The notes: generated from the letters alone by a model not told the origin. Shown: positions 9,397-33,392, numbered from the stretch's first letter. The stretch: DNA of 64,000 bases from Candidatus Moraniibacteriota bacterium (GCA_049287005.1 JBAQEZ010000003.1:605670-669669), one strand, 5' to 3'. Translations and numbers: made by a program.

Positions 9397-9406
9397 AAGT
9401 ATGTGT

Positions 9407-9433
9407 GCTGAGGCTCTGGGATGAAGTTGGAAC
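9407..9433 (+). repeat. intercistronic repeat copy A (GCTGAGGCTCTGGGAYGAAGTKGGAAC family)
   Basis: One of five copies at more than 80% identity. It lies 10 nt from the start codon of the 8812..9396 gene. Confidence 0.8.
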
Positions 9434-9459
9434 TTATCTAAATCAGGAGTAATTACATC

Positions 9460-18325: not shown

Positions 18326-18400
18326 GTCGGTGTTATTAAAAATTAATTTTGATACATTAAGAACTAGACGCTTCTCAAGTCTACTGTGGATAACCTCCGC

Positions 18401-18436
18401 TTGCTTTCGTTAACTTTAGGTAGTATACTTTAGGTA
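18401..18436 (+). promoter_or_regulatory. sigma70-like promoter (TTGCTT-17-TATACT) with the direct repeats CTTTAGGTA x2 overlapping the -10
   Basis: Lies upstream of the LexA/CI-like gene. The direct repeats at 18414–18422 and 18428–18436 would suit an autoregulatory operator. Confidence 0.45.
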
Positions 18437-18458
18437 TTAAGATTTTGTCAAATTTACC

Positions 18459-19118
18459 ATGGAAAGGCTAACAAAGAAGCAGACAGAGGTGCTCCAGTTT
18501 GTGCAAGATTTTCAAAAGAATCACTTGCACTCACCTTCGCTAAAGGAAATTGCCCATTTTTTTGAAGTAAGCATTCCGACCATTTACCAGCATGTTTCAG
18601 CCCTTGAAAAAAAAGGCTATCTTCTTCGTACAAAAAACAAAAGACGTGATTTTGAAATTGCAGAAACGCCGATCCCTAAGAATGCAATAAAATCCCCTGC
18701 TTTTGAGGCATTCACGGTTCCAATTCTTGGAGCTGCTACTGCTGGTTTTCCAAGAAACTTTGCCGAGGGACATGTAGAAGGATACATCAAAGTTTCTCGT
18801 AGGTTATTAAAACCAAAAAAAGAGCTGTTCGCAGTGAGGATAGATGGCGAATCTATGAACAAGGCCTCTAAGGCAGATGTCCTTCTTGCAAATGGAAACT
18901 TTGCAATTATTGATCCGACAAAAACGAATCCCGAAAACAATACCTATGTGTTATCAGTTATTGACGGTCTAGCAAATATTAAGAAGTTTCAAAGAGATAA
19001 AAATGGGATTCGTCTCATATCAGAATCTACAGAAGGTATTTATAATAAACCTATTCACATATCTAGTAGCGACGAGTATATGGTCAATGGTGAGGTGGTA
19101 GCGGTAATTGAGAAATAA
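18459..19118 (+). CDS. LexA/CI-like repressor (HTH plus S24 peptidase)
   Basis: An N-terminal LexA-type HTH, then a C-terminal VRIDGESM...K S24 Ser-Lys dyad. Confidence 0.8.
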   Translation: MERLTKKQTEVLQFVQDFQKNHLHSPSLKEIAHFFEVSIPTIYQHVSALEKKGYLLRTKNKRRDFEIAETPIPKNAIKSPAFEAFTVPILGAATAGFPRNFAEGHVEGYIKVSRRLLKPKKELFAVRIDGESMNKASKADVLLANGNFAIIDPTKTNPENNTYVLSVIDGLANIKKFQRDKNGIRLISESTEGIYNKPIHISSSDEYMVNGEVVAVIEK

Positions 19119-19125
19119 TTAGGTT

Positions 19126-19902
19126 ATGTCACTAAAATCAAAGAAAGGTCAGAAAAATAGAGACCACGTCAATCTGCTTATTTCTGATCAAAAATTTCAA
19201 GAAGAAATCAGAAAAATAAGGGTAAAGCTTGGTATACCTTCCGAAGGGTTTACTAAAAACGCTGAAATCGAAGCTTGGACTTATAAAGCTGCAGATGAAG
19301 CTGACGAAATTTTTGATTCAGAAGATTTTTGTGAAAATCTTCTGAAGATAGATAAAGATTTTCAAGATCAGAAAATAACCTCTCGCGAGAAGGATAACCT
19401 AAGATATGAGGCACATCTTGTTTTGCCAACAAATTACGAAGCTCATGCTATAAGAGAGATAATTAAAAATTTCAATCTGCCGGAAAACTACGAATTCATG
19501 TTACGGACTTATCTGGTAAACAACAGCACTAACTTTCTTCCTAATAATTTTTCCATATCGTACTCAAAAGATCAAAGGAGTGTTTCTGTAAATATTTACA
19601 CTCGTCTAACCGATGAGGATTTAAGAGAGATTAAAGAATTTGTAAACACTTACCATGGAGATAAGCTCCCCTATATACAGAGCCTAAACAACTTAAGCGA
19701 AAAACTCTCTATAGAAGAATTAGATCGGAAAGCATACGAGGTAGATGCTGTTACCTACAAACCTTATAGACTCACAAATAAAGACATTGCGGAAAGAGTT
19801 CTAGGAGATCCTTCTAGAGGGAATGAGGTTTACGAAGCTAAAAGAGGACTGGAAAGACTGAGAAAGTCACGATTTACCACACGGAAAACTATTGACCAAT
19901 AG
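19126..19902 (+). CDS. hypothetical protein
   Basis: A 258-aa ORF with no family motif that I recognise. Confidence 0.45.
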   Translation: MSLKSKKGQKNRDHVNLLISDQKFQEEIRKIRVKLGIPSEGFTKNAEIEAWTYKAADEADEIFDSEDFCENLLKIDKDFQDQKITSREKDNLRYEAHLVLPTNYEAHAIREIIKNFNLPENYEFMLRTYLVNNSTNFLPNNFSISYSKDQRSVSVNIYTRLTDEDLREIKEFVNTYHGDKLPYIQSLNNLSEKLSIEELDRKAYEVDAVTYKPYRLTNKDIAERVLGDPSRGNEVYEAKRGLERLRKSRFTTRKTIDQ

Positions 19903-19966
19903 TTTTCCGATTATTGACAGTGCTGAGCTTTATACTAAGAACATAATTAATTTTATGTTTTTTAGT

Positions 19967-21250
19967 ATGAAAAAGCTCTCATGGACGACGATCCAAAAAC
20001 GTGTTGATGATCTCATCCCCCAGGAGATCAACCCTCGCAGAATCACTGACAAGCAAATGTCGGATCTCAAGCGAAGTTTGAAAAAATTTAATTTAGTAGA
20101 ATTGCCTGCGTCAGACAGCGACGGAACAATTCTCGCCGGACACCAGCGCATCAAAGCCCTGCAGTTGCTCGGCCGTGGAAAAGAATTGATCGACATCCGG
20201 GTACCGAATCGGAAATTGACCAATCAAGAAGTAAAGGAATACTTGATCGGCTCCAATAAGTTGGGTGGTGATTGGGATTATGATCTCTTGAAAGCCTTTG
20301 ACTTTGAAACTCTTTCCTTTGCGGGTTTCGACGCTATCGAAATCGCAAACTTCTGGGATGAGAAGAATGAGACGAAGGAGGACGCTTTCAATGTCACGGA
20401 AGAGCTCAAAAAAATCAAAGACCCGAAGACAAAACTCGGTGACATTATTCATCTCGGCAAACACAAGATTCTCTGTGGAGATGCGACTGATCCGAAAAAT
20501 CTTGCCCGTCTCTTTGGAGACGAACGAGCTAGCATGATCTACTCGGATCCTGTCTACAATATTTCTATCGATTACGACGGTGGCATTGGCGGAAACAAAG
20601 AATACGGAGGAAACGTGAACGATACTCGTACCTACGAGGAATACCAGCAATTCATAAAGGAGAGCCTTATAGCTGCTCTTTCCGTTTCCCAGTCCGATAC
20701 TCATGTCTTTTACTACTGTGATCAAGTTTACATCGGCCTGATCCAAGACATCTATCGATCGCTTGGCGTTGCGAACAAGCGTGTTTGTTTGTGGCTCAAA
20801 AACTCTCAAAATCCGGTTCCGAAAGTGTATTGTAACAAAGCCTATGAGCCGGCCGTATACGGCACCCGAGGGAAGCCTTATCTTGCCGAATCCATCACTA
20901 ATCTCAACGAGGTGATGAATCGTGAGTTTACTACGGGCAACGACCTGGTATCTCAGGTAGATGATTTTCTCGAAATCTGGACCGCTAAGCGTCTTTCCGC
21001 CAAAGAGTACCAACACGCTACCTCAAAGCCGATCACACTACACGAGAAGGCCATAAAACGCTGTACAAGACCAAACGATATCATTCTGGATAGCTTCCTC
21101 GGCTCTAGTAGCACTCTTCTCGCTGGAGAACAGTTAGGGCGCCGAGTGTACGGATGTGAGCTTGAGCCCCGGTTTTGCGATCTCGGCGCCAACAGGTACG
21201 AGGCTCTCACGGGAATTAAACCGATTATCGAACACTATGAAAAAGAATAA
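19967..21250 (+). CDS. ParB-like nuclease domain fused to an N4/N6 DNA methyltransferase
   Basis: A GHQRIKA ParB-N motif, the SDPVYN (DPPY-type) catalytic motif, and an FLGSSST SAM-binding loop. Confidence 0.8.
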   Translation: MKKLSWTTIQKRVDDLIPQEINPRRITDKQMSDLKRSLKKFNLVELPASDSDGTILAGHQRIKALQLLGRGKELIDIRVPNRKLTNQEVKEYLIGSNKLGGDWDYDLLKAFDFETLSFAGFDAIEIANFWDEKNETKEDAFNVTEELKKIKDPKTKLGDIIHLGKHKILCGDATDPKNLARLFGDERASMIYSDPVYNISIDYDGGIGGNKEYGGNVNDTRTYEEYQQFIKESLIAALSVSQSDTHVFYYCDQVYIGLIQDIYRSLGVANKRVCLWLKNSQNPVPKVYCNKAYEPAVYGTRGKPYLAESITNLNEVMNREFTTGNDLVSQVDDFLEIWTAKRLSAKEYQHATSKPITLHEKAIKRCTRPNDIILDSFLGSSSTLLAGEQLGRRVYGCELEPRFCDLGANRYEALTGIKPIIEHYEKE

Positions 21251-21635
21251 GTACCAAAATCAATTTTTGGAGGAACTGGCACACATTCCCATTATCCAAG
21301 TGGCTTGCGAGAAAACTGGGCTTTCCCGCAATAGCGTGTACCGATGGCGCAAAAAAGATTCCGTCTTTGCCAAAAAAATGGATGAGGCCCTTGCCGATGG
21401 CGTCGCTCTCGTAAACGACATGAGCGAAAGCCAGCTCCTCAATCTGATCAAAGAAAAGAGTTGGCCTGCGATTAGTTTTTGGTTGAGACATAGGAATGAT
21501 AACTACAAAGCAAAGGTACAAATTGATGGTTCCCTAAAGACCATTAGTGAGCTTTCTCCAGATCAAGAAAAGACAGTAAAAGAAGCTCTCAAATTAGCAG
21601 GATTAATTAAAGAAGACTATGAAGAAACTCAATAA
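21237..21635 (+). CDS. terminase small subunit (HTH)
   Basis: Lies immediately upstream of, and overlapping, TerL. It reads IIQVACEKTGLSRNSVYRWRKKD. Confidence 0.5.
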   Translation: MKKNKYQNQFLEELAHIPIIQVACEKTGLSRNSVYRWRKKDSVFAKKMDEALADGVALVNDMSESQLLNLIKEKSWPAISFWLRHRNDNYKAKVQIDGSLKTISELSPDQEKTVKEALKLAGLIKEDYEETQ

Positions 21636-23058
21636 AGAATTACTTGATAGCCTTGTGAAAGATCGTTCCGTTAGGCAAAAAGTAGTGTACGAAAGCCACA
21701 TGATGTTTTTTCTTGTTTACTTCGCACACTACGTTAAATATGAGTTAGCGAACTTTCATGAAGAAATCATTAATATCACGCAAGACAGTAAAAACAAACT
21801 GGCATGTATTGTTGCGTTTCGAGGTTCTGGCAAATCTACTCTGGTGACTACATCATACTCTTTATGGGCTATTCTCGGTCGGCAAGGTAAAAAATTTGTT
21901 CTCATCGTCTGTCAGACGCAAGCACAGGCAAAACAACATATGAGAAATTTACGATCCGAATTAGAAGAAAATAGACTCTTAAAAAGTGACTTGGGACCAT
22001 TCAAAGAAGAACCTGATCTTGAATGGGCTATTTCTTCATTAGTGTTCAGTAATACCGGAGCAAGAATCACCATTGCTTCCTTGGATCAGAGTATCCGCGG
22101 TATGCGACATCGTGAGTATCGTCCCGATCTCATTATTCTCGATGACGTTGAAGATGTGCAATCAGTAAAAACGGTAGAGTCGAGAGATAAAACGTTTGAT
22201 TGGTTTACAAGAGAAATCATCCCTCTCGGAGACCTCAATACGAGAACCATTGTTGTCGGAAATTTGCTACACGAAGATTCTCTTGTTATGAGATTGAGAG
22301 ACAAGATTGAAAATAAAGATATAGAAGGGGTCTATAGACAGTACCCACTTGTAAACCAAGATGGTATCTGTCTCTGGCCTGGAAAGTTTCCTAACAACGA
22401 AAGTCTGGAGTTATTTAGAAAATCAATTGTAAGCGAAACTAGCTGGCAAAGAGAGTATTTACTTCTTGTAGTGCCTGACGATTATCAGATAATTCATAGG
22501 GACTGGATACAACGTTATGATGAATTACCTAAAAATACCAGGTCATACTATGAAGTCATCATTGCCGTTGATCCGGCAATCACTCAAACAGAAAGATCTG
22601 ACTACACTGGGATAGTGTGCGGATTAGTGGTGTTTGAAAAATCAGATTATTATAAACTATATATCTTGCCTAATCCAATAAACGAAAAAATGGACTTTCC
22701 TACACTGGTAGACAGAATTAAGGCATTAGCGGAGGAGATTAAAAGAGATATCTATTATTCAATAGCAATCGTTGTAGAATCCGTGGGCTATCAAGAGGCA
22801 ATCCCTCAACAATTAAGACGAGAGGGTTTCGACAACTGTGAAGCGGTTAAACCAACGTCGGATAAAAGATCAAGACTGGCAGTAGTCAGTCATAGAATAA
22901 AAAATGGAGACATTTTATTTCCTAAGCAAGGAGCAGAAAACCTCATAAATCAAATTGTAAATTTAGGTAATGAAAAACACGACGATCTTGCTGATGCGTT
23001 TGTTATGTGCGCACAAAAGCATTCATCTTATACTGTACAGTATATAGGGTTTGCCTGA
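21619..23058 (+). CDS. terminase large subunit
   Basis: A Walker A motif AFRGSGKST, a Walker B motif LIILDDVED, and a C-terminal RNaseH-like nuclease region (AVDPAITQTERSDYTGIV). Confidence 0.8.
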   Translation: MKKLNKELLDSLVKDRSVRQKVVYESHMMFFLVYFAHYVKYELANFHEEIINITQDSKNKLACIVAFRGSGKSTLVTTSYSLWAILGRQGKKFVLIVCQTQAQAKQHMRNLRSELEENRLLKSDLGPFKEEPDLEWAISSLVFSNTGARITIASLDQSIRGMRHREYRPDLIILDDVEDVQSVKTVESRDKTFDWFTREIIPLGDLNTRTIVVGNLLHEDSLVMRLRDKIENKDIEGVYRQYPLVNQDGICLWPGKFPNNESLELFRKSIVSETSWQREYLLLVVPDDYQIIHRDWIQRYDELPKNTRSYYEVIIAVDPAITQTERSDYTGIVCGLVVFEKSDYYKLYILPNPINEKMDFPTLVDRIKALAEEIKRDIYYSIAIVVESVGYQEAIPQQLRREGFDNCEAVKPTSDKRSRLAVVSHRIKNGDILFPKQGAENLINQIVNLGNEKHDDLADAFVMCAQKHSSYTVQYIGFA

Positions 23059-23254
23059 TTTTTAAGAATCAAGAAAATATTTTCAAAATTCATTAGTTAG
23101 TATAGTGATAGAGCCTATAACAACGATATTATCTACTACTCCGATTATGTTGATGTGGGCTAGCAAAAGAGCTCGATTTTAGCTAAAAAAGTTGTCAACA
23201 AGTTGTCAACGATTGCCTCCTTTACTTCCCCCACCAGTCTGTCATTAATGAAGT

Positions 23255-24610
23255 ATGGATAATAGCTATATTTCAGCCCTCATTGGTCAACCAGCAGTAA
23301 TTCCGACAGTAAAGGTTAGGTACTGCCTCTATGCCAGAAAGTCTACCGAACAGGACGAAAAACAAGCCCTTTCCATTGAGTCGCAAGTGAAAGAAATGCT
23401 CGCTATCGCCGAAAGAGAAAATCTCGACATCATAGACATACGAAGAGAGGCGCATTCAGCTAAAGCTTCTGGACAACGGCCAGTCTTCAAGGAAATACTC
23501 GCCGATGTGCGAAGAGAACGGTTCAATGGAATCCTTGTTTGGCATCCTGATAGATTGAGCAGAAATGCGGGAGATCTTGGTTCGGTTGTAGATCTTATGG
23601 ATGAGCAATTGCTAGTGCAAATACGGACGTACGGACAGGCATTTACGAATACACCGAGCGAGAAGTTTCTCCTTATGATTCTATGCAGTCAGGCAAAACT
23701 CGAGAATGACAACAAGAGTATTAACGTAAAACGTGGACTCAGGACAAGGGTCGAGATGGGGTTATGGCCCGCCCCTGCCCCAACTGGCTACTTCAAAGAA
23801 AAGAGAATGGATCGCAAATGCGAAACGCTTATTGATCCAGATCGAGCACCAATCATAAAGCAAATGTTTGAAAAAGTGGCTTATGAAAAATGGAGTGGTC
23901 GGAAAGTTTATAATTGGCTGAAATTTGATCTCAATTTCAAAACAGCGGGTGGGAATAAGAATCTGACATTGAGTAACGTCTATATATTATTGCAAAATCA
24001 CTTCTATTATGGGACTTTCGAGTACCCGAAAAAGTCGGGAAACTGGTATCAGGGTAGACATGAACCGATTATTAGCAAAGAACTATTTGACCAAGTCCAA
24101 GCACAGGTAAAGAGCCATATACTGAGAACGCAAGAACCAAAAGAATTTGCCTTTACCAAACTGATGACTTGTGGACTTTGCGGATCTGGGATATCTGCTG
24201 ACGAAAAGTTTAAAAAGCTAAAAGATGGTTCAGCGAATAGACATGTCTATTACGGTTGTAGCAAATCCAAAGACAGAAATTGCAAACGAATTTATATTAA
24301 TGAATCAGATTTGATTAAACAACTTGAAATGCTTCTTGATAAAATAAGCATTGACGAAATTGGAATAGTAGAAAAAATAAAGTATGAAGTCGAAAGAATG
24401 AAGAAATTTCAACAATCTATTCTAAATATAAAACAAGAGGTACAAATAAAAGACGTAGACATCAGAGACTACGTTAAATTCATTTTGAAAGACGGATCAA
24501 TTGAAGAAAAGCGAGAATTACTAACTTGTCTCAAAAGTCGACTCATCCTTACAAAAGAGAAGAAATTAATTCTCAGGAAATATGAAACCACCATAGAAAA
24601 CAATATTTGA
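23255..24610 (+). CDS. large serine recombinase (phage-type integrase/resolvase family)
   Basis: A catalytic domain YARKSTEQ...VWHPDRLSRN, a recombinase domain, and a zinc ribbon CGLCGSG...YYGCSK. Confidence 0.85.
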   Translation: MDNSYISALIGQPAVIPTVKVRYCLYARKSTEQDEKQALSIESQVKEMLAIAERENLDIIDIRREAHSAKASGQRPVFKEILADVRRERFNGILVWHPDRLSRNAGDLGSVVDLMDEQLLVQIRTYGQAFTNTPSEKFLLMILCSQAKLENDNKSINVKRGLRTRVEMGLWPAPAPTGYFKEKRMDRKCETLIDPDRAPIIKQMFEKVAYEKWSGRKVYNWLKFDLNFKTAGGNKNLTLSNVYILLQNHFYYGTFEYPKKSGNWYQGRHEPIISKELFDQVQAQVKSHILRTQEPKEFAFTKLMTCGLCGSGISADEKFKKLKDGSANRHVYYGCSKSKDRNCKRIYINESDLIKQLEMLLDKISIDEIGIVEKIKYEVERMKKFQQSILNIKQEVQIKDVDIRDYVKFILKDGSIEEKRELLTCLKSRLILTKEKKLILRKYETTIENNI

Positions 24611-24692
24611 CTGAAGTTCCTTAAAAAGCCATAATAATAGTACAATATTGCCTAAACTCGTAGCAATACGAGCATGGCTCAATAGTAGAAAC

Positions 24693-24740
24693 CTACGTCA
24701 ATAAAAACGGTCTTCCGACCGGCACTTATTGACGTAGGTC
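24693..24740. repeat. 48-bp imperfect palindrome with 13-bp perfect arms (CCTACGTCAATAA ... TTATTGACGTAGG)
   Basis: Lies 80 bp after the recombinase stop codon. A third copy of CCTACGTCAA sits at 24848. It is a candidate att site or a terminator. Confidence 0.45.
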
Positions 24741-24862
24741 GATATCTCGAAAGAGATATCGGGCGGTTTCGAAAGGAATCGTCTGCTTGGTCGGAGGACC
24801 ATTTTTGTACCTTAAAAATCAAATAGCTCATTTCTCAATTAATTAAATCCTACGTCAAAAAT

Positions 24863-25678
24863 ATGTTCAACAATAAACCGCTTATATGTACGGCCTGTGG
24901 CTATGTCGGAAAACCACAGAGAATTACAAAGGGAAATACTTTAATCGAATTAATTCTCTGGCTATGCTTCCTGGTCCCTGGACTAATTTATTCAATCTGG
25001 AGACTGTCTTCGAAGTATGATGCTTGTCCGAAATGCAAGGGATCTTCTATGATCCCAACAGATAGTCCTGTTGGACAAAAAGTGATTAACGAACAAAAAA
25101 ATACTCTCGGAACAGACCCTGTTGAAACGTACAAAACAGAGAGTCAAAAAGAGACCGCTAAAAATACAAAGTTGGCCACGATAGTAATCGGAAGTGTTAT
25201 TGTGATGGTATCTATTTCAGCATACATTGGACAAAATAATGCAAAAAATGAACCACAAAATACCACCGTTCAACCAGTAGTGCAAACTTCCCAACCCACG
25301 TTTGATGTTCCAGCTCTGTTAGGAAAAAATATAGATGAAATTCGAAAAATTCTTGGAAAACCAACCGAAAAAAACATTGAAGCTCCTAAGGATATTCTCG
25401 ACAAGCAAAAAATGCTCGGCAATAGCTACGTTATGCAGACCTGGGATAACACTTTTGAATCCAATGGATTAAGAATAGATGTTGAATTCTATATAAAAAA
25501 TCGTTCCGTCAAAGAATTCTTCATTGAGGCTAATGATCCGTCTGGTATTACCAAAGACAAACAACGACTTCTTCTTATTGGCAACCTTAATGAAAAAGAT
25601 CCGCGATACTCAGTTGAATTTGTCAAAGCTAAGGTAGACCCAACTTCGTTTACTGGAATAATTATTTCTCCAAAATAA
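24863..25678 (+). CDS. hypothetical membrane protein with an N-terminal zinc ribbon
   Basis: CTACG...CPKC flanks a TM helix, and a second TM lies mid-protein. Confidence 0.5.
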   Translation: MFNNKPLICTACGYVGKPQRITKGNTLIELILWLCFLVPGLIYSIWRLSSKYDACPKCKGSSMIPTDSPVGQKVINEQKNTLGTDPVETYKTESQKETAKNTKLATIVIGSVIVMVSISAYIGQNNAKNEPQNTTVQPVVQTSQPTFDVPALLGKNIDEIRKILGKPTEKNIEAPKDILDKQKMLGNSYVMQTWDNTFESNGLRIDVEFYIKNRSVKEFFIEANDPSGITKDKQRLLLIGNLNEKDPRYSVEFVKAKVDPTSFTGIIISPK

Positions 25679-25893: not shown

Positions 25894-26376
25894 TCACTCC
25901 AACTCTTTACTCATTTTTTCAAATCCTTTTCTATCTAAGTATTCACTAAGATCATAACGATGCCCGCCCTTTATCTCCCTGAAATCGAAAGCTTCTTTTT
26001 TCTGTGGATTCACCCATAAATAGTAACTATACCTGCCACCACCCTTAGTTTCGTGTAGTATTTTATGATTTAGTGATAATTTGCAAATCTCTTTCGTTGG
26101 GATCGTGATGGTATGTGGTTCAATATATCTCCTTCCTGTTTCCTCTGATTGCTCAATGACATAAATTAAAAAAATAAAGTAGTCTGCAGTGGCTTTCTGA
26201 ACGACATCTTTATGAAGAAAAAACCAACCACCGGAACCTTCACCAAAACTTTTCGACTCGCTTTTCTTTGGTTCATAGGCTTTGCTCCCTTTTACTTGAA
26301 TTGAAATAATTTTTTTATTTCTAACATTCATCAACACAAGATCAATTCCTTTCATTTGGGCATTGATAGGCATCAA
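25894..26376 (-). CDS. hypothetical protein (possible PD-(D/E)XK-like D...IQVK)
   Basis: A 160-aa ORF with GIDLVLMN...ISIQVKGSK. Confidence 0.4.
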   Translation of the reverse strand: MMPINAQMKGIDLVLMNVRNKKIISIQVKGSKAYEPKKSESKSFGEGSGGWFFLHKDVVQKATADYFIFLIYVIEQSEETGRRYIEPHTITIPTKEICKLSLNHKILHETKGGGRYSYYLWVNPQKKEAFDFREIKGGHRYDLSEYLDRKGFEKMSKELE

Positions 26377-26525
26377 AATCTCTACCTCTCTCGCGGTTTC
26401 ACTTCTTAATATGCCAGTGACAACCGCCTCGTCGGTATTCAGGCTCCAAAAGTTTTTATATGCTCTAATCGTAGTTTACGTTCATATAGGTATACTTAAT
26501 TGTGAAAACAAATCAGCCCCCTGTT

Positions 26526-26864
26526 TCAGGTATTTCTCATCATATCTAGAGTTAATTGTTTTTTTATTTTCTCCCAATCTCCCTCTGAGAAATTATATCC
26601 AGTTTTAAATCCTACCCAACAGATATCGTTAAGATGCTTATAATAACCATTTTGCTTTTCAACCATCTCCCACCATTTTTCATCGTTACCTAACAAATGC
26701 TTTGATGGATGAGCTGCTATTGCTTTATTATAATTTTGTGTTGTAATATTTCTCCATTCATCTTTAATTGTCGGATATTGTAACGCAACAGCTGCTTTCT
26801 TTAGATCTGCTGATCCTATCTTGACTTGATCAATGGAAAATATTTTTTTAAACACATCCCACAT
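26526..26864 (-). CDS. hypothetical protein
   Basis: A 112-aa ORF downstream of the AAA gene. Confidence 0.45.
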   Translation of the reverse strand: MWDVFKKIFSIDQVKIGSADLKKAAVALQYPTIKDEWRNITTQNYNKAIAAHPSKHLLGNDEKWWEMVEKQNGYYKHLNDICWVGFKTGYNFSEGDWEKIKKQLTLDMMRNT

Positions 26865-26883
26865 AATTTATATAATTTGCCAG

Positions 26884-27975
26884 TTATTTTCTTTCCATAT
26901 TTACAAATTGATCAAAGTATTCAATATCCTCCACTGAAATTGATGGGTTAAATTTATTGATTGCTTCAACTAGCATTTTCTCATCAACCATATTTTTATT
27001 TTGAGACACGGCAGCGCGAGCTGCCTCTGTGACAATCAGTTCAATATCTGATCCCACATAATTCTCTGACATTTTTGCAAGTTTTTCAAAATCAATGTCA
27101 TTATCATATGGTCGACCAGAGAGACAAATTTTAAACATATCTCTCCTTGCTTTAAAATCAGGCGGTCCAATATAAATTCGCTTGTCCATTCTACCTGATC
27201 GGAGTATGGCTGTATCAATCATATGTGGCCTATTTGTTGCTCCAACAACTAAAATCTTATTCTGACCAGCATTATTAAGTTGAAGCAAGAACTCATTTAT
27301 TTCTTCTTTTTTAATATCAGCCGAGGCGCTTAACTCTTCTCTTTTTGGTACAAGCCCTTCGATTTCGTCAATAAACACAATTGATGGTGCTTGCAGCTTT
27401 GCCATTTCAAAAACTTTACCAATATTACCTACCGCGCCGTGAACATAGGAGGTTGCAACAGAAGAAGGGGCCATCTCGATAAAGTTATACCCGAGTTCCT
27501 CTGCTAATTTTTTAACAATAAATGTTTTGCCGCATCCCGGAGGTCCAAAAAGTAATATACCATTCGGGATGCCGAGCTTGAATTTTATATACTTCTCCGG
27601 ATTCAACAATGGCTCTATCACCTCATTGATCAAAAGGTTTTTCAGAGATTCCATACCAGCGACACAATCAAAGCCACGCAAGACAGTAAGATCATCTATG
27701 ACGTCACCGATCTTTTCATTTGCGTGTTCATCTGTAATAACACAAAGGTGTTTTTTTCCTCCATGATTAATTGTAATCAAATCGTATTTTTTTGCGCGGT
27801 CAACAACTTCCTCTGGTTGTATATTAGTAAAAAGATAAAGATATTTTCCATTAGAAAGTACATACACTTCCGTAAAAAAGACTCGTTCAATGCGGCTCGT
27901 AACTGTGATGTCATCTCTTATTTTGAAGCCATTATGCAAAATTGGCTTTGTAGGTGTCGCCATATTTTTATTCAC
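26884..27975 (-). CDS. AAA+ ATPase (classic AAA clade with a single AAA domain)
   Basis: A Walker A motif GPPGCGKT, a Walker B motif IVFIDEIEG, and a second region of homology with an arginine finger (GATNRPHMIDTAILRSGRMD). Confidence 0.85.
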   Translation of the reverse strand: MNKNMATPTKPILHNGFKIRDDITVTSRIERVFFTEVYVLSNGKYLYLFTNIQPEEVVDRAKKYDLITINHGGKKHLCVITDEHANEKIGDVIDDLTVLRGFDCVAGMESLKNLLINEVIEPLLNPEKYIKFKLGIPNGILLFGPPGCGKTFIVKKLAEELGYNFIEMAPSSVATSYVHGAVGNIGKVFEMAKLQAPSIVFIDEIEGLVPKREELSASADIKKEEINEFLLQLNNAGQNKILVVGATNRPHMIDTAILRSGRMDKRIYIGPPDFKARRDMFKICLSGRPYDNDIDFEKLAKMSENYVGSDIELIVTEAARAAVSQNKNMVDEKMLVEAINKFNPSISVEDIEYFDQFVNMERK

Positions 27976-28576
27976 CAGAAATTATGAGTAAAAGAAATAT
28001 TATTACAATGATTATTGCTACAGTAGCTCGTATGAAACCTATTTTCTCATGCGTTACGGTGAAGTGGCCATCCTTGTCCCAAGTAGTAGCACCTTCTTTA
28101 TTCAAATAACTATATGCGGATGAAAGCGTGAAGAGACTAACAATAGGGATACCGAGACCAAGACCCCTAAACCAAACTGCAAAACTACGATTCAGTGCTT
28201 TGGAAAATTCAAGTTTACTGCCTTCAGGACTCTTGAGATTAACTCGAAGGAGCCATTTACCCGGAGTTGTTCCCCATGTATTTAGAAGAGCAGCCTCTGC
28301 AAATATCCAGACAAAGAGTATAAGTAAAGTTAAAAACGTATCTGAGGTTTCTAAAAGCGATGGTATAAAAATACCTAAAAAGACACCAAAGATAAGTGAA
28401 AAAACAATAACATCTAGAGATCTAGCCCAATACCGTATCCATGGACGAACCGTAGTTACTGAATCGGGATTTGATTTTTTCTCATCAACCCGCCCTTCAA
28501 CTACTGGCTTTGTAATTGGATCTTTCTTGTCTAAAAAATCAAGATCTATATCTAATTTTTTTAATGGTTCTGACAT
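27968..28576 (-). CDS. RDD-family-like polytopic membrane protein with an N-terminal LDIDLDFLDKKD motif
   Basis: RPWIRYWARSLD plus three TM helices. It shares its N-terminal motif with the next gene. Confidence 0.55.
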   Translation of the reverse strand: MSEPLKKLDIDLDFLDKKDPITKPVVEGRVDEKKSNPDSVTTVRPWIRYWARSLDVIVFSLIFGVFLGIFIPSLLETSDTFLTLLILFVWIFAEAALLNTWGTTPGKWLLRVNLKSPEGSKLEFSKALNRSFAVWFRGLGLGIPIVSLFTLSSAYSYLNKEGATTWDKDGHFTVTHEKIGFIRATVAIIIVIIFLLLIISGE

Positions 28577-28584
28577 ACAATTTT

Positions 28585-29208
28585 TTAATACCTCTTGGTG
28601 CAGTTAGCTGCCAAATAATTATTTCGTTTTTGAACTTGGGCGTTATAACGATCAATTCTTGTGTTCGTGTCCGCTACAGCTCGTTTATAGGCTGGGAGTT
28701 TCGAGTTATAGGCATCTACCGCTGCATTATATTGATTAATTTGATACTGTGAAGAATATTCATTCACATTAGAACCATCTATTTCTCTTTTTAAGCGTTC
28801 TAATTCGTTTGTTTGGTTCTCCAAAGTGTTTTGTGCTAATGCTATTTGTGATTCGTTTTCATCGGGATTAAGTATATCTGCTTGATTGGAATGATCTCGT
28901 GAACAGCTATACTGGCCAACTATCACATCATTTCCGGTAGTACTTGTGGTTGAAACAGTAGAAGGAGAGGTGTTGTTTGTTGTGTTCGAACTACTGCTGT
29001 CATCAGAAAATAGTGCCCATCCAAAAAAAAGAATAACTCCACCAATGATCAGAATATTTTTCCAGTTATACTTATGGCTGGCTAATATCGAAGTAGGAGC
29101 ACTAGAAGTCTGTCCAGTGTTGAAATCCGGTTTAGGTGTGACTATAAGCGAGTCCTTCTTATCAAGAAATCCTAAGTCAATATCAAGATGATCTTTCGAG
29201 TCTTTCAT
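28585..29208 (-). CDS. single-pass membrane protein with an N-terminal LDIDLGFLDKKD motif and a coiled-coil ectodomain
   Basis: Reads HLDIDLGFLDKKDSL, then a TM helix, a Ser/Thr-rich linker, and a Q/N-rich coiled coil. Confidence 0.5.
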   Translation of the reverse strand: MKDSKDHLDIDLGFLDKKDSLIVTPKPDFNTGQTSSAPTSILASHKYNWKNILIIGGVILFFGWALFSDDSSSSNTTNNTSPSTVSTTSTTGNDVIVGQYSCSRDHSNQADILNPDENESQIALAQNTLENQTNELERLKREIDGSNVNEYSSQYQINQYNAAVDAYNSKLPAYKRAVADTNTRIDRYNAQVQKRNNYLAANCTKRY

Positions 29209-29214
29209 ATATTA

Positions 29215-30861
29215 TTATTTTTCCCGATTATCATAACAAGCCTGCACAAGCGCTGGTAAAACAACTGCGTTAGGAGCTGACATTGGGATGGTAGAGAATT
29301 GCTGACTCTTCCCATCCTTATCCACCCACAGAATTACTGAGCCTTGATCAAATTTTGGAATGTATATAGTATCTGTCCAATAAACCATTAGTTTCTCATT
29401 TTTACCAAATAATTTAAATTGAATCTTTGAATACCCTTGTTTTGTAAACTCCACCTCACCAATTTTTACAGCTTCTCCGCGACTAAAAATCTGATCAACA
29501 ATTCTTTTAATAATAAGAGGTTCAATTAAGCTGGATGCTAGTCCAACTAGTTGTGCCCAACTATCTTTTGCTTTACTCTCTTCCCTGCTCGCAGAGAGAG
29601 ACAGTGAGATATTTTCTTTTTCAGAAGTGGCTGACCATCTGTAGACGTACGAAGTGGAAACTGGTACACCATAGACCCTTGACGTTGTTGCGGTTGAATC
29701 AAAAGAGATGTTTAGTACGTCTTTAAAAAAAATTCTTTTATCATTGTATTCGAGAAAGCTGTTTTTAAACACAACAGTGCCACTTCGGAATGTTCCAGGG
29801 ATCTCTATGGCGAGAGAATTCTCGATGTCATCAGAAATATTCTTTTTAATCTGTTCAAGTTCGCCATGCAGTTTATTTTTTAAACTTTCAGTACCAGCAA
29901 GTTTAATCGCCACTTCTAGAAGGCCTTGAGATTTGTTAAGTTCACTTAAGTTATTATGCAAGTCAAGAATGATAGATCGCAAGGCGTTAGCCGCACGATC
30001 GCGCATAATCTTAGTTTGACTATCTTCGTATAGACCGAGGTCAATCAGTTTATTTAGTTCTAGTGAGATTGAAGCGACAAGTTGTTTGATTGTTTGTGAT
30101 TCCTCTTTATCAAATTTCCCATCCTTGCTTACCTCCATTTTTTCAAGTCCCTCAACGGCCTGACTAATTGCTTGATAAGCCGGTCCCAAAACGCTCTTTT
30201 CTATCTTCTCGCCTTTTACTGAGAAAACTTTTTGAAACTCATTAATGTAGTCACTATTTTTATGAATGTGGTGCAGCTCTGTATATATATCTGACAGGTA
30301 TTCCACTACGTGCTTTCTGAAATCAGAAATAATATCCTCACTGGCCGTTTGTTCATCATGAAGTTTGTAAATCTTAGAAAAAGAGTTCCAGAACTTATCC
30401 GAATCGACAAGTTCTTTCCATGCAACCAAGGAATTCTGTAGGTATTCCTTATTGTCTTCTGCTGAAAGTATCAGACAATACAAAATAGCAAGATTTTTTT
30501 TGTAAAAGAAGGCTTTTGTGTTTTGACCTTCTGATGCATCTTGCCAAGTTCCAACAGCATTCAAATAGTCTTTGAGCTTAAACAAGCCCAACACTTGTTC
30601 ATCCACTCCATCTGCGATCTGAAACCAAAAAAAGTATTCCCTGATTCGTTTTTTAGGAGCTTGGAGTCGCTGTAAGGCATCTTTGACTGCATTCTCAGTT
30701 CTGAAATCTTCAAACAAACCTAAGTCTGTATCGTAGTCAGGAGTATCTTCAGCTCTGAGACGATTAACAATCTCTTTTGAGCGCTTTAAAATATCTCTTT
30801 CACTGACCGACGTATCCAGTCCAAGGATATGGTAAGAATTATTTTTAAGTGTAAGTGACAT
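29215..30861 (-). CDS. J-domain-like protein (HPD replaced by TPD) with a long helical C-terminal region
   Basis: N-terminal SYHILGLDTSVSERDILKRSKEIVNRLRAEDTPDYD aligns with the DnaJ sequence YYEILGV...AYRKLAMKYHPD. Confidence 0.5.
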   Translation of the reverse strand: MSLTLKNNSYHILGLDTSVSERDILKRSKEIVNRLRAEDTPDYDTDLGLFEDFRTENAVKDALQRLQAPKKRIREYFFWFQIADGVDEQVLGLFKLKDYLNAVGTWQDASEGQNTKAFFYKKNLAILYCLILSAEDNKEYLQNSLVAWKELVDSDKFWNSFSKIYKLHDEQTASEDIISDFRKHVVEYLSDIYTELHHIHKNSDYINEFQKVFSVKGEKIEKSVLGPAYQAISQAVEGLEKMEVSKDGKFDKEESQTIKQLVASISLELNKLIDLGLYEDSQTKIMRDRAANALRSIILDLHNNLSELNKSQGLLEVAIKLAGTESLKNKLHGELEQIKKNISDDIENSLAIEIPGTFRSGTVVFKNSFLEYNDKRIFFKDVLNISFDSTATTSRVYGVPVSTSYVYRWSATSEKENISLSLSASREESKAKDSWAQLVGLASSLIEPLIIKRIVDQIFSRGEAVKIGEVEFTKQGYSKIQFKLFGKNEKLMVYWTDTIYIPKFDQGSVILWVDKDGKSQQFSTIPMSAPNAVVLPALVQACYDNREK

Positions 30862-30866
30862 ATTAT

Positions 30867-33380
30867 TTATCGTGTAATACCCGAAAGTTTATTTCTCATT
30901 GTTTCCTGTTCATCAGATGGCAGTAGCAACAATAAGTTGTGAACGCAGCGCTTTAACTCGTCAACATCACCAAGCTCTATTGCGCGTCTGCCTTTCTCGG
31001 TATAATAACCAGCTTCCTTTTCATTGATAAATTTCTTATTACCATCGGTAAGTTGACTGAATTGATAGGCCCATGTTGCCGGATTAGAAAACAAAGCCTT
31101 GCCACCAAGTTCCTTGATTTGCTCGTTTACTCGGACCAGGAGAGCTTTATCATTTTCTGCTATAGCCTTTTCTCCTTCTTCTTTCATTTTTTTGAGATGC
31201 TCCTCGTGCTGTACTTTGTCTTTATCATCACCAAGTTCAGTGATAATTGTTTGGGTAGTTTCTGTGCTCTCTTTAAATTCTTTAAGCAACTGGGGCATCT
31301 CTTTTTCCTTTTCAAGTCGATCAATAGCTATTTTTAAATCCTTAAGTTGTTTGTTTGCCTTAAGCTTCTCGTCTTCGTCAATATGCGCGTTCCTCAAGCT
31401 GTTTGCTACCGAATTGATCGTGTTATTAAGTCTATTCTTTTCCTCAGTAGAACAGTTTTCAGAAACAGACCGTGCTCTTTCAGTTTGTATATTTAAATCA
31501 TATTCAATAGTCTTAACTTCTAGAGTTTCATCTTGCGCTGTAGAACGAGCCTTGAGGGTGAGGTCAACCAAAGGAATATAAGCGGTCACAAAGACTTCGC
31601 GCGACTCATTCATTTCGACAGTCAATTCCAATGGAGTTCCTTCTGGTAGATCATGAGGTAAATCCTTGCCATTAACGCCTAGCTCACAAAGATAGGTGTT
31701 GCGATCAGGGATCTCGGACTCGCCCTCAACCAAGGTAATATCCAATTTGCCTTCTTCATTTTTCCTTAGTTTTCTGGAAGTTTTTAAATCAGTTAGGACT
31801 TTCTTAATAGGAAGTATAGATCCCTTGTCGAAAATCTTCTCACAAACGTTTGTTGCAATATTCCGAATATGATCCTTTTTAGCTACAATTACACCAACCG
31901 AATGAGGCAATGGTGCACCGGATACTGATAGCCCCTGGGTAATAGAAAATGAGTCAGGATCAACCAAAACAGAATTGCCGTCTTTGTCAAAAAGGTAAAT
32001 CCAATAGACGTTTGGCTTGCCTGGTTCGACAGCAACCGTATCAAAAAATTTGCCACTCTTTAACTTGATTTTTGAACCATTATAAAATCCGCTGTCTGAT
32101 TGAATTTGTATATAATATTCTTCTTCGGAATCTTTAATATCCTCTATGACACCACTGATTGTTTCTTCGGTATCGGAAGTCAGAGATTCATAATTCAGAT
32201 TGATAGACATTGTCCCTTTTTTGAGTTTCTGAGGGTCATTTTCTATGAGTTCCTTCGGAATCTTTTGTCCAATTCCAAATACACAAGCACCTCTTGCAAC
32301 GACTGTGAGAGGGTCAACAGACGCATCTGCGATTATTTTAAGTTCGCTTTCTATTCTTTCACGAATGTATGGGATTTGAGTTGGTCCGCCAACGAGAATT
32401 ACCTTTGCAACAGAACTATTCTTAATACCAGCATCTTTCAATGTCTCCTTCGAAAGCTCAATGGTGCGATCAACCATTGGTTTGATTAGTTTTTCAAATT
32501 CTTTCCTCGTAAAATCAATGGTAAGAAAAACCTCTTTGCATTCATTGTCATTCCCGATGTTCTCTACTACGATTGATGTTTTTTCGTATTCGGAAAGTTC
32601 AATTTTAGCCCTCTCAGCAAAGAATTTCAATTGGGAAAAAATACCGCGGTATTTTTCATTGCCTCTATTGAAATTATTAATTGAAAATTTCTCTAAAATC
32701 TTTGGCACTATTACTTTGTCAACAATCTCCAAATCAAAGTTCTTACCACCAAGAAAATTGTCACCGTTATGACCAAGCACTGAAAGTGCTCTATCTTTGG
32801 AAGCTATCAAAGCTACGTCAAATGTGCCTCCACCAAAATCATAAATGAGCCAATTTTCATTCTTGGTGTTTGTGAAACCATAAGCAATAGCAGCGGCTAT
32901 CGGCTCTTGTAATAGTATTACGTGTTTAAATCCGGCAAGATTTCCAGCACGCTTTGTTGCTTCAGACTGTAAAACCGAAAAAGCAGCTGGAACCGTGATT
33001 ACGGCAGCTACGGTATTGAAGTCTGTATATTTTCTTAAAATGTCCTCTTTTAGACTTTTAAGGATCTCAGCCGAAATTTCTTCCGGCCCCATTTCTATAC
33101 CAGCTCTCTCAAAATAAAAAGTTTCCGAAGTGCCCATCAGCCTTTTAACTTCGGGTTTGTAGTTTTTTATCTCATCTTCAGATGCGTCCTTATAAAAATT
33201 CTCATAAGCCTTCTGACCAACCACTTTATTCTTTGATTTATCAAAACCAAACACAGACGGCGTATATTCAACACCGCCAGGTTTTTTGACGATTTCAATA
33301 TTGCCGTTATTGTTTATAGCAATAGATGAGTTTGTTGTACCCAGATCTATGCCTATTTGAATACTTTGTTGACTGGCCAT
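30867..33380 (-). CDS. atypical Hsp70-family ATPase (DnaK-like NBD plus a roughly 460-aa non-canonical C-terminal region)
   Basis: Carries [25 protein letters not shown] and ILVGGPTQIPYI. The C-terminus lacks a DnaK-type substrate-binding domain. Confidence 0.8.
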   Translation of the reverse strand: MASQQSIQIGIDLGTTNSSIAINNNGNIEIVKKPGGVEYTPSVFGFDKSKNKVVGQKAYENFYKDASEDEIKNYKPEVKRLMGTSETFYFERAGIEMGPEEISAEILKSLKEDILRKYTDFNTVAAVITVPAAFSVLQSEATKRAGNLAGFKHVILLQEPIAAAIAYGFTNTKNENWLIYDFGGGTFDVALIASKDRALSVLGHNGDNFLGGKNFDLEIVDKVIVPKILEKFSINNFNRGNEKYRGIFSQLKFFAERAKIELSEYEKTSIVVENIGNDNECKEVFLTIDFTRKEFEKLIKPMVDRTIELSKETLKDAGIKNSSVAKVILVGGPTQIPYIRERIESELKIIADASVDPLTVVARGACVFGIGQKIPKELIENDPQKLKKGTMSINLNYESLTSDTEETISGVIEDIKDSEEEYYIQIQSDSGFYNGSKIKLKSGKFFDTVAVEPGKPNVYWIYLFDKDGNSVLVDPDSFSITQGLSVSGAPLPHSVGVIVAKKDHIRNIATNVCEKIFDKGSILPIKKVLTDLKTSRKLRKNEEGKLDITLVEGESEIPDRNTYLCELGVNGKDLPHDLPEGTPLELTVEMNESREVFVTAYIPLVDLTLKARSTAQDETLEVKTIEYDLNIQTERARSVSENCSTEEKNRLNNTINSVANSLRNAHIDEDEKLKANKQLKDLKIAIDRLEKEKEMPQLLKEFKESTETTQTIITELGDDKDKVQHEEHLKKMKEEGEKAIAENDKALLVRVNEQIKELGGKALFSNPATWAYQFSQLTDGNKKFINEKEAGYYTEKGRRAIELGDVDELKRCVHNLLLLLPSDEQETMRNKLSGITR

Positions 33381-33392
33381 AGTAACAGCAGA

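Follow-up and report, generated by a model that had tools for sequence, protein, structure and literature searches.

Small integrated elements with a terminase but no virion genes: a widespread and apparently undescribed family in Patescibacteria

The temperate siphophages of the ultra-small CPR/Patescibacteria carry a packaging block in which a ParB-N/methyltransferase (MTase) gene and a gene in the TerS position precede the gene for the terminase ATPase/nuclease, TerL. From there they go on to portal-MuF, protease, capsid, connectors, tail tube and tape measure, and they have the replication genes Phage_rep_O and AAA_24. The element described here has the same block order, with 28–34% identity to these phages in the ParB-N/MTase and 34–44% in TerL, but lacks the virion genes, has no recognised replication gene, and carries a LOOT RNA that the phages lack. 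It also resembles PICIs and SaPIs in being integrated and repressor-controlled, with a TerS, defence cargo and no virion genes, and P4-like satellites and PLEs, which are small integrated hijackers that have hotspots for anti-phage systems. LOOT itself has been described as a structured RNA with ~43 pairs in six helices (PMC7657543). Rfam lists it (RF03000) only as an sRNA gene, and in the searchable literature we found no link between LOOT and any genetic element.

The window, a 64,000-nucleotide stretch of a Candidatus Moraniibacteriota bacterium (GCA_049287005.1, JBAQEZ010000003.1:605670-669669), contains the following features.

14957–18325, minus strand: probable left-arm cargo, of uncertain membership (domain matches, family positions); its four genes follow
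14957–15325, minus strand: membrane protein
15330–16427, minus strand: Zn-ribbon protein (family c8)
16434–17861, minus strand: Shedu SduA (SduA_C by Pfam and PADLOC)
17867–18325, minus strand: LTD-domain protein
18326–18458, no strand: putative regulatory gap of 133 nt between the divergent LTD-domain (minus) and repressor (plus) genes
18459–19118, plus strand: LexA/CI-type autocleavable repressor, winged-helix LexA DNA-binding domain and S24 peptidase (Pfam, PHROG)
19126–19902, plus strand: 258-aa protein (family c11), no database match
19955–21250 (longest ORF from 19892), plus strand: ParB-N domain fused to an N6/N4 DNA methyltransferase (Pfam, PHROG)
21237–21635 (longest ORF from 21156), plus strand: TerS-like small HTH protein (weak HMM matches and position)
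21619–23058, plus strand: TerL, ATPase and RNase H-like nuclease (phrog_38, 2e-79; Terminase_6C, 5e-11)
23255–24610, plus strand: large serine recombinase (Resolvase PF00239, Recombinase PF07508, Zn_ribbon_recom PF13408)
24636–24806, plus strand: LOOT structured RNA (Rfam RF03000 match at 24649–24783)
24863–25678, plus strand: LOOT-associated 271-aa protein, N-terminal zinc ribbon and two predicted TM segments
25894–34366, minus strand: possible right-arm cargo block, of uncertain membership (gene content, GC, comparison with relatives); genes for GrpE-like, 837-aa Hsp70-like, 548-aa, coiled-coil, RDD and IetA-like AAA+ proteins and two small ORFs
33913–34119, minus strand: excisionase/MerR-type HTH gene heading the right-arm block
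34293–34366: tRNA-Gln(CTG), end of the right-arm block

The repressor, ParB–methyltransferase fusion, TerS, TerL and recombinase named in the preliminary description all lie where it had placed them, on the plus strand. Its end of the module at 24610 is too early, since the LOOT RNA and the gene at 24863–25678 are also part of it. The repressor matches LexA_DNA_bind (E 8e-12) and Peptidase_S24 (E 7e-18), and an Ala-Gly (AG) site, the GESM serine and the NIKK lysine can be read in its sequence. In a promoter scan the region's best sigma-70-like match fell in the divergent gap upstream of this gene (minus strand, 18451–18422, 11/12). The c11 protein, which gave no match in Pfam, PHROG, PADLOC or PDB, occupies a slot directly 5' of the MTase gene that in every case holds a member of one of four small families (c6, c11, c12 and c14). 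The C-terminal part of c12 and c14 is an OmpR-like 'SGYRL' winged helix, and the C-terminus of c11 is HTH-like; c11 is probably DNA-binding and possibly an activator of the packaging operon.

For the MTase we adopted the start at 19955 from the gene call in an identical contig (L001). The protein matches N6_N4_Mtase (2e-29) and, at its N-terminus, the ParB-like families phrog_498 (2e-77) and phrog_620 (1.5e-21). The next gene overlaps the start of TerL and is termed TerS-like on the basis of its position and weak HMM matches (phrog_4044, 9e-10; also phrog_4102 and a weak Sf6_terminase match). TerL has an N-terminal Walker A/B ATPase and a C-terminal RNase H-like nuclease, and an alignment of 24 sequences shows Walker A (GSGKST), Walker B (LDDxED) and the acidic residues of the nuclease to be invariant; searched against the PDB, the profile of this alignment matches T7 gp19 (4BIJ). 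All three Pfam domains of the recombinase score above their cut-offs and its catalytic serine lies in YARKST. This Resolvase, Recombinase and zinc-ribbon set is that of large-serine-recombinase integrative elements, and the protein is a candidate for the element's integrase/excisionase.

None of the ORFs of at least 100 aa at 8.4–35.2 kb, nor any of ten further window ORFs, matched a portal, capsid or tail family, which bears out the lack of such genes reported earlier, and the ORFs scanned gave no tyrosine integrase. Pfam and PHROG likewise found neither a primase nor a helicase or Rep domain in the module core, c11 and c8 gave no such match, and no capsid-size-redirection gene was recognised in the element. 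PADLOC matches were confined to the MTase, which fits generic type II MTase models, and the Shedu gene next to the module; TerS, TerL, the recombinase and c11 had none. The possibility that structural genes would adjoin the module in a fuller assembly, making it a split prophage, was not borne out: the window lies inside a 766,823-bp Moraniibacteriota contig with host genes (FtsX, RF, AlaRS, DnaK, DnaB) on both sides, and the module is therefore not an assembly split. GC in the module is 35–46%, compared with ~50% where the window carries host genes.

The low-GC region stops at 34 kb in the window. On this side the HTH gene at 33913–34119 is about 85% identical (by eye) to a copy beside another module (L085), and relatives have cargo operons on the downstream side of TerL, often with a tRNA next. 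On the other side, 18 loci have c8 upstream of TerL and three have it downstream, and the pair c143 and c8 occurs in one further locus (L073). The true left end of the element was not found in the window.

Searching GTDB species representatives, metagenomes and IMG/VR revealed the order MTase, TerS, TerL in about 165 independent loci of Patescibacteria, taken from MAGs and metagenomes. None of them includes virion genes, and in all of them the nearest 10 kb are free of structural genes. The searches yielded more than 2800 TerL homologues, with at least 569 confirmed stretches in GTDB species representatives and at least 531 in metagenomes. TerL is intact in nearly all loci, with 177 full-length copies that keep the catalytic motifs. 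In IMG/VR, 13 of 15 loci were of the module type, and the small number of copies there was counted against a satellite reading. In 72 of 74 loci an MTase gene is found no more than 1.5 kb upstream of TerL, and a TerS-like gene adjoins TerL in 67 of the 74. Where at least 8 kb of downstream sequence was available, the recombinase follows TerL in 45 of 65 loci, 44 times on the same strand, and is absent within 8–10 kb in the other 20; over all loci it is downstream in 94 and upstream in 8. The flanks are strongly polar. LexA/S24 repressors (49 upstream, one downstream) and c6 (33:0) are found upstream of TerL, hsdR (27:0) and c5 (23:2) downstream. No other gene family occurs in more than 17 of the first 86 sources, and there is therefore no conserved portal or capsid gene.

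Defence genes are found on both sides of the module (Shedu, type I and III R-M, ThsB-TIR-like, RT, AbiV). Cargo includes whole type I R-M systems between TerL and recombinase in two loci (L179 and L109), ThsB-TIR-like, RT, and an Eco57I-type MTase with SNF2 elsewhere, and Shedu in the window. Some contigs hold two modules (L014/L047, L063), and a 4.5-kb block from MTase to recombinase retains 80–94% identity despite different left flanks. Such duplicates, the conserved block in varied flanks and the atypical GC are signs of mobility. A search for element ends gave no convincing repeats and no close relative with an empty site; no attL/attR, circular contig, terminal repeat or recombination directionality factor was identified for the element. 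In one subgroup, similarity ends exactly at the stop codon of the recombinase.

The LOOT copy in the window scores 60.6 bits, above the Rfam gathering score of 46.4, and has a fold z-score of -7.1. Promoter and terminator scans placed a promoter-like site at 24607–24635 and a terminal hairpin with a T-run at 24788–24810. With a purpose-built covariance model, LOOT was found in 79 of 180 sources. In the resulting alignment 92% of cells are paired, against 35–47% in slid controls, and 42 of 45 pairs show compensatory double changes, so the helices are backed by covariation. The window copy resembles the published RNA in having six helices, with about 45 pairs compared with its ~43. A same-strand ORF starts within 100 nt of LOOT in 34 of 47 copies (57 nt in the window). 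Most of these ORFs encode Zn-ribbon/TM surface proteins, e.g. with tRNA_anti-like OB, bPH_2, DUF4352 or SNase domains. LOOT is a regular part of the element, usually 20–70 nt 5' of a gene for a small membrane or surface protein.

As positive controls we used two IMG/VR phages (L101, L102) and two prophages (L184, CP064977.1; L185) in Patescibacteria genomes of 729–811 kb. In all four, TerL is followed by portal-MuF, protease and major capsid, and in the prophages it is preceded, as in the window, by a ParB-MTase and a gene in the TerS position. Among the window ORFs scanned, and in the about 165 related loci, no portal or HK97-fold capsid is linked to the terminase, and classification as a Caudoviricetes prophage was rejected. 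Only the MTase and TerL families are common to the four phages and the elements. Over its full length the window TerL shares 34–39% identity with the prophage TerLs, and the MTase is 28% identical to that of L185, with matching architecture. The TerS-like protein shows no similarity to the phage proteins in the TerS position, which is what a difference in packaging specificity would lead one to expect. The TerLs of the elements make up a tight clade, with a median identity of 53% compared with 37% to phage TerLs. These comparisons clearly point to an element that descends from, or swaps genes with, this phage family. Because of the TerL identity and the shared block order, the 30–35-kb siphophages, far larger than the element core of about 7 kb, are candidate helpers.

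Our best reading takes the module for the core of a mobile element, integrated and inducible, that belongs to a Patescibacteria-specific family. Its conserved plan runs from a repressor (LexA/S24, or an ImmA/ImmR pair in relatives) through a small DNA-binding protein, the ParB-N/MTase, TerS and TerL to a variable cargo zone, with LOOT just 5' of a surface-protein gene and often entire defence systems, and the large serine recombinase. The preliminary description had offered a satellite or a severely reduced prophage. The satellite is the better supported, because the capsid-less plan recurs, TerL is intact, the repressors are of an inducible type and a recombinase and defence cargo are present; a random remnant does not accord with about 165 loci. 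We hold with moderate confidence that this is a satellite-like element which depends on a helper and is packaged by the terminase it encodes. As it has its own packaging enzyme but no virus-particle genes, theft of capsids from related phages is the most likely mode of spread. Against this reading weigh the failure to recognise element ends, a replication gene or a capsid-size-redirection gene, the 20 of 65 loci with no recombinase nearby, and the weak HMM matches behind the TerS assignment.

In such an element the repressor would hold the packaging operon off during quiescence, until DNA damage or phage infection triggers RecA-stimulated self-cleavage, as the S24 catalytic residues suggest. 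MTase, TerS and TerL would then be expressed, and the recombinase may excise the element. Its own TerS would bind a pac site on element DNA and load its own TerL, which could dock on procapsids of a related 30–35-kb siphophage, co-resident or infecting. Element DNA would enter the capsids as multimers or, should packaging begin in situ, along with adjacent cargo and chromosome, and capsids would be diverted from the helper. The MTase may pre-modify the DNA and so guard it from the numerous restriction systems that new hosts possess.

The alternative that survives best, though we consider it unlikely, is a defence or interference module whose MTase, TerS and TerL are kept mainly for cell protection, mobility by the recombinase being secondary. 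On infection the terminase would cut or package DNA at the cost of the procapsids or genomes of incoming phages of the related family, and the methylase would mark self. The defence genes on both sides, the 20 loci with no nearby recombinase and the missing replication gene agree with this, and the phylum-wide conservation of TerL, unusually high at about 50%, might likewise suit a role in the cell or in defence. However, no PADLOC model matches TerS, TerL or the recombinase; prophage-type inducible repressors, a linked recombinase in most loci and multiple copies per contig are traits of mobile elements; and a full ATPase and nuclease terminase with a dedicated TerS exceeds the needs of a nuclease effector. 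Satellites, too, interfere with their helpers, so the two models overlap.

Horizontal movement, to which point the atypical GC in the window, varying copy number, duplicate modules and variable flanks and cargo, argues against a split GTA-like system, in which the module would be the packaging and regulatory part and head and tail genes would lie elsewhere in the same genomes. The recombinase and prophage-type repressors, and the lack of any structural gene within 10 kb of the loci, count against it as well. Although the highly conserved TerL, its very wide spread within one phylum, and the lack of replication genes and recognisable ends would suit such a system, we regard it as improbable.

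We find it very hard to credit that the module is a decayed 30–35-kb Patescibacteria prophage whose structural and replication genes were deleted. It does retain the MTase, TerS, TerL order of real prophages, but independent decay would not yield one gene set and order in about 165 loci or leave catalytic residues in 177 full-length TerLs. The element TerLs form their own clade, and LOOT, the unrelated TerS and the c6/c11/c12/c14 slot are specific to the element and absent from phages. Re-use of the terminase by a serine-recombinase integrative element for its own DNA processing (resolution of replication products, capsid-free mobilisation), of which we know no precedent, is scarcely plausible: RNase H-like TerL nucleases do belong to the transposase superfamily, but the packaging ATPase, nuclease motifs and partner TerS are all conserved and the closest relatives are working phage terminases beside portals.

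More tentatively, the family might constitute a new, phylum-wide class of phage satellites in CPR/Patescibacteria, with TerS and TerL, a methylase, serine-recombinase integration and a dedicated LOOT RNA, and no capsid or replication genes. It might then be the main vehicle of defence islands and may package in situ, with downstream cargo co-travelling as in lateral transduction. If so, CPR bacteria would have their first described satellite system, and LOOT, an orphan Rfam RNA, would gain a biological home.

On gene content the element belongs to none of the PICI, cfPICI, P4 and PLE groups. P4 is packaged by the terminase of its helper, whereas the element has its own; PLE-type genes, and Sid/Psu/Delta and the alpha primase-helicase of P4, are all absent (no PHROG or Pfam match for the P4 genes), and the small structured RNA of P4 immunity is a loose analogy to LOOT. 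cf-PICIs encode TerS and TerL, as the element does, but also portal, major capsid, protease and head-tail connectors, taking only tails from the helper; the element has none of these genes. The earlier label 'PICI-like' is apt as an analogy, and exploitation of helper capsids is presumably shared. The defining features of PICIs differ: a tyrosine integrase, often with AlpA, beside a divergent repressor pair, whereas the element has neither of these two proteins and its large serine recombinase is encoded at the opposite end of the module; a primase-replicase (pri-rep) and origin, compared with no recognisable replication module; and a TerS used with the TerL of the helper, whereas the element encodes its own TerL beside the TerS-like gene. 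The ParB-MTase and the LOOT RNA further set the element apart from PICIs.

The preliminary description of terminase genes grouped with a repressor, a ParB-methyltransferase and a serine recombinase at 18459-24610 was borne out by the ORF listing and HMM scans, which resolve the region into a six-gene block that is co-directional on the + strand:

18459-19118, + strand: repressor with LexA_DNA_bind and Peptidase_S24 domains; an Ala-Gly site, a GESM serine and a NIKK lysine are present in the sequence
19126-19902, + strand: 258-aa protein (cluster c11), from the ORF listing
19892/19955-21250, + strand: ParB-like N-terminus fused to an N6_N4 methyltransferase (MTase; phrog_498, 2e-77; PF01555, 2e-29)
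21156/21237-21635, + strand: small HTH protein, TerS-like, with weak TerS matches (phrog_4044, 9e-10)
21619-23058, + strand: TerL (phrog_38, 2e-79; Terminase_6C)
23255-24610, + strand: large serine recombinase (Resolvase, Recombinase and Zn ribbon domains) with a YARKST catalytic motif

The 258-aa protein is without match in Pfam, PHROG, PADLOC or PDB, and PADLOC gave no match for TerS, TerL or the recombinase. The lack of capsid, portal and tail genes also held, as HMM scans of all ORFs of at least 100 aa at 8.4-35.2 kb and of ten elsewhere (with 36-57 kb covered in part) returned no portal, capsid or tail family. The window belongs to a 766,823-bp contig of a Candidatus Moraniibacteriota MAG and includes genes for DnaK, DnaB, AlaRS, RF and FtsX; the element is present in the samples SRR28062879 and SRR11476867. 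A misassembled or split prophage, whose structural genes should adjoin the module in a better assembly, was rejected, since on this 767-kb contig host genes flank the element on both sides.

A search for relatives of its TerL found more than 2800 homologues, the top 120 of which are 53-96% identical to the window protein, and their named sources are Patescibacteria MAGs. Among the matches listed from 50,697 phage records the best was 27.5% identical (Helicobacter prophages and Mu-like phages), and a close cultured phage relative was rejected on this basis. Pattern scans confirmed at least 569 stretches in GTDB species-representative genomes, at least 531 in metagenome contigs and 15 in IMG/VR; the record titles mostly name Patescibacteria lineages, with a minority bearing other, auto-assigned or short-contig labels.

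Locus maps were drawn from ORFs that a simple script predicted under genetic code 11 and that BLAST grouped into families; the counts are approximate for this reason, yet the maps are unambiguous. They exhibit a conserved order of MTase, TerS and TerL, with a second MTase of 257 aa sometimes following the first. The MTase lies at most 1.5 kb upstream of TerL in 72 of 74 loci and TerS adjoins TerL in 67 of 74. Of the 65 non-redundant loci whose sequence extends 8 kb or more beyond TerL, 45 have a large serine recombinase downstream, on the TerL strand in 44 of these and a median of 1.0 kb away; in the remaining 20 no recombinase is in reach. Any further family is present in at most 17 of the first 86 sources, which argues that no conserved portal or capsid gene is hidden in these loci. 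Full-length TerLs numbered 177, and an alignment of 24 TerL sequences shows no variation in Walker A, Walker B or the acidic residues of the nuclease; the profile of this alignment reaches T7 gp19 in PDB. One locus (L063) includes two TerL genes within 8.8 kb, and two others (L014 and L047) are located about 20 kb apart on one contig. Such differing copies close together on MAG contigs point to tandem insertion, or to insertion at the same region more than once.

Phages of the same hosts encode a related block. Two IMG/VR contigs (L101 and L102), with TerLs 35-38% identical to that of the window, carry a portal-MuF fusion after TerL, followed in L101 by a protease and a major capsid protein. 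Homologues of this portal number 228; many lie on contigs of 30-35 kb, and some of them in Patescibacteria chromosomes. Two prophages, one at 767122-789320 of CP064977.1 (L184; Candidatus Campbellbacteria, 811 kb) and one on a 729-kb scaffold (L185), share the order ParB-N/MTase, small gene, TerL, portal-MuF, protease, Phage_capsid, connector and tube, with later tail-type genes that include a tape measure in L185 and Collar/Gp10_C in L184. The CP064977.1 prophage also encodes the replication genes AAA_24 and Phage_rep_O upstream. These four phages are members of a family of temperate Patescibacteria siphophages of about 30-35 kb, characterized by portal-MuF and a ParB-MTase/TerS/TerL block, and are candidate helpers of the element. 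The window TerL is 34-39% identical to those of L184 and L185 over its full length and the MTases are 28% identical with the same architecture, whereas the proteins in the TerS position are unrelated. MTase and TerL are the only families common to about 165 element loci and the four phages. Median pairwise identity is 53% among element TerLs (5th percentile 46%) and 37% between element and phage TerLs (95th percentile 41.6%), and by this measure the element TerLs form a tight group distinct from those of the phages.

The genes around the conserved core are distributed asymmetrically. Upstream of TerL, a LexA-type repressor is found in 49 loci (versus one downstream), the alternative regulator being a pair of an ImmA-like M78 peptidase and HTH_3. 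The slot directly upstream of the MTase is occupied by one of four small protein families, c6, c12, c11 and c14, which lie upstream versus downstream of TerL in 33:0, 19:0, 9:0 and 8:1 loci and gave no convincing alignment as one family. ThsB-TIR-like, DUF2188 and Zn-ribbon (cluster c8; 18 loci upstream versus 3 downstream) genes are also found upstream. On the other side, downstream versus upstream counts are 94:8 for the recombinase, 27:0 for hsdR, 19:1 for hsdM and 10:0 for reverse transcriptase. Further downstream genes encode an Eco57I-type MTase with an SNF2 helicase, type III R-M, membrane SNase, DUF4352 and tRNA_anti-like OB proteins, and in two loci (L179 and L109) entire type I R-M systems are inserted between TerL and the recombinase. 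Since random chromosomal neighbours would lack such asymmetry, we read these flanks as cargo arms of the element. The corresponding regions of the window contain the following features:

15330-16427, - strand: 365-aa multi-zinc-ribbon protein (c8), of a family that recurs beside TerL modules
16434-17861, - strand: Shedu SduA nuclease, between the 365-aa protein and a lamin-tail-domain protein
17867-18325, - strand: lamin-tail-domain protein, flanking Shedu
25894-34119, - strand: low-GC operon headed by a 68-aa excisionase/MerR-type HTH gene
34293-34366, - strand: tRNA-Gln(CTG), listed with this operon

The Shedu gene in the left arm and the block at 25.9-34.1 kb in the right arm, with its excisionase-type leading gene, are probably parts of the element. 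PDB sequence searches with the 365-aa protein, as with the 258-aa protein, gave nothing usable. The 68-aa HTH protein matches PADLOC mad1, and the operon continues with genes for GrpE-like, 837-aa Hsp70-like, 548-aa, coiled-coil, RDD and IetA-like AAA+ proteins and two small ORFs. Relatives at least 90% identical to the Hsp70-like protein are labelled Parcubacteria, Peregrinibacteria and Omnitrophota, which indicates that the block is itself mobile; it may represent an undescribed defence-type system.

The 252-nt gap that follows the recombinase holds a structured RNA, LOOT (Rfam RF03000), matched at 24649-24783 on the + strand with 60.6 bits (gathering score, 46.4):

24636-24806, + strand: LOOT unit, immediately behind the recombinase gene; a Zn-ribbon/TM protein gene starts 57 nt further on

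The window copy folds with a z-score of -7.1, is closely preceded by a promoter-like site and ends in a hairpin and T-run. With a covariance model derived from seven copies, LOOT was found in 47 sources out of 100 and 32 out of 80 (79 of 180 TerL-module sources), but in none of the four true phages examined. The structure has strong support, with 92% of cells paired and compensatory changes in 42 of 45 pairs, compared to 35-47% in slid controls. Of 47 LOOT copies, 34 are followed within 100 nt by the start of a same-strand ORF, and about 28 of these 34 ORFs encode proteins for which TM segments are predicted, frequently together with a zinc ribbon at the N-terminus. LOOT nearly always directly precedes a gene for a small membrane or secreted protein. 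The common layout places the gene and LOOT, both in reverse orientation, between TerL and the recombinase; in the window subgroup the order is TerL, recombinase, LOOT and gene, all in the forward direction. LOOT may act as leader or attenuator for the surface-protein gene, as a free RNA with a regulatory role, or in connection with packaging. In the window's closest structural subgroup, a tRNA-Ser(CGA) lies about 100 nt after the LOOT-associated gene with its 3' end towards the element (L058, 14050-14139; L085, 13788-13875), and the two loci have different genes between LOOT and this tRNA, as though by cassette exchange.

Alignment of the sequence after the window's LOOT-associated gene with relatives abutting tRNA-Ser(CGA) did not define the end of the element. 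Searches for direct and inverted repeats around the module gave low-identity, AT-rich matches only, and the window includes no partial copy of tRNA-Gln. For an empty site, the HD protein of the right flank had no close homologue on a long contig. Terminal repeats indicative of circular forms were found on none of 31 short contigs of the first sets and none of 80 metagenome loci. In 60 loci about 50 tRNAs were counted, close to the density expected for genomes of such size; those on the right side mostly point to the element, but as the left side has the same strand bias, tRNA targeting was set aside.

Two other features of the window were observed. A 43-nt repeat with the core GCTGAGGCTCTGGGATGAAGTTGGAAC is present in five copies (at 9398, 10215, 10550, 12162 and 12893, spanning 9398-12935) that are 72-86% identical to a reference copy. 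Each copy is located between two successive - strand genes (hydrolase, deformylase, small ORFs, SDR and kinase-like), directly 5' of where the next one starts; the arrangement resembles an array of cassettes or a 5' leader common to these genes. At 1561-1676 on the - strand, an Rfam tRNA match of 42.4 bits extends over 116 nt with no ARAGORN call; it is possibly a tRNA gene interrupted by an insertion or intron.

We conclude with high confidence that the module is real, recurrent and not a prophage. Its methylase and terminase correspond to the opening genes of the late operon in Patescibacteria siphophages, and they are combined with a TerS of the element's own, inducible repressors of prophage type, a serine recombinase, defence genes as cargo and a private RNA. 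As the module encodes no particle-building genes, we consider, with moderate confidence, a helper-dependent satellite to be the most economical mechanism. Self-cleavage of the repressor would induce the element, the recombinase would excise it, TerS would recognise a pac site, and the terminase, docking on the helper portal, would direct element DNA into procapsids of related phages, while methylation would protect against restriction. Interference with helper phages would then be a side effect of procapsid use. This reading is weakened by the searches that returned no att site, empty site or circular form, by the core of about 7 kb, far below the 30-35 kb of the candidate helpers, by the 20 of 65 loci with no recombinase in reach, and by the replication genes, of which none was recognised. 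In view of this last point, and of cargo that is confined to the downstream side of the terminase, packaging may also start in situ and take the downstream arm with it.

A defence or interference module, the first alternative, overlaps with the satellite idea and is consistent with the defence genes of the arms, but PADLOC support for it is absent. Other alternatives are a split GTA-like system and a terminase re-used for capsid-free DNA processing. The preliminary description had also allowed for a severely reduced prophage; recurrence, intact TerLs and element-specific parts count against a decayed prophage.

Patescibacteria form a large, mainly uncultured share of bacterial diversity with tiny genomes, and their gene exchange and phage resistance are poorly known. 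If the satellite reading is correct, the element represents a design outside current classes and detection rules (own TerS and TerL, no capsid genes, serine integrase), would rank among the main vehicles of R-M, Shedu, TIR and RT defence genes in these bacteria, and would give the orphan LOOT RNA a concrete, testable genetic context. For virus-mining pipelines, a well-conserved TerL that stands alone in a CPR genome should not be taken as a sign of a prophage.

According to a 2025 preprint, whether satellites extend to the viruses of CPR bacteria is unknown. Full-text literature searches returned no account of the element and none of LOOT in such a setting, nor any link of LOOT to a genetic element or published genetic context. 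The element meets the definitions of TerL, large serine recombinase and LOOT RNA. Its likeness to PICIs, proposed in the preliminary description, is functional, as for other satellites, and does not extend to their defining features: the tyrosine integrase/AlpA and pri-rep are absent while TerL is present. Neither the cf-PICI set of capsid and portal genes nor the genes characteristic of P4 and PLE are present in it.
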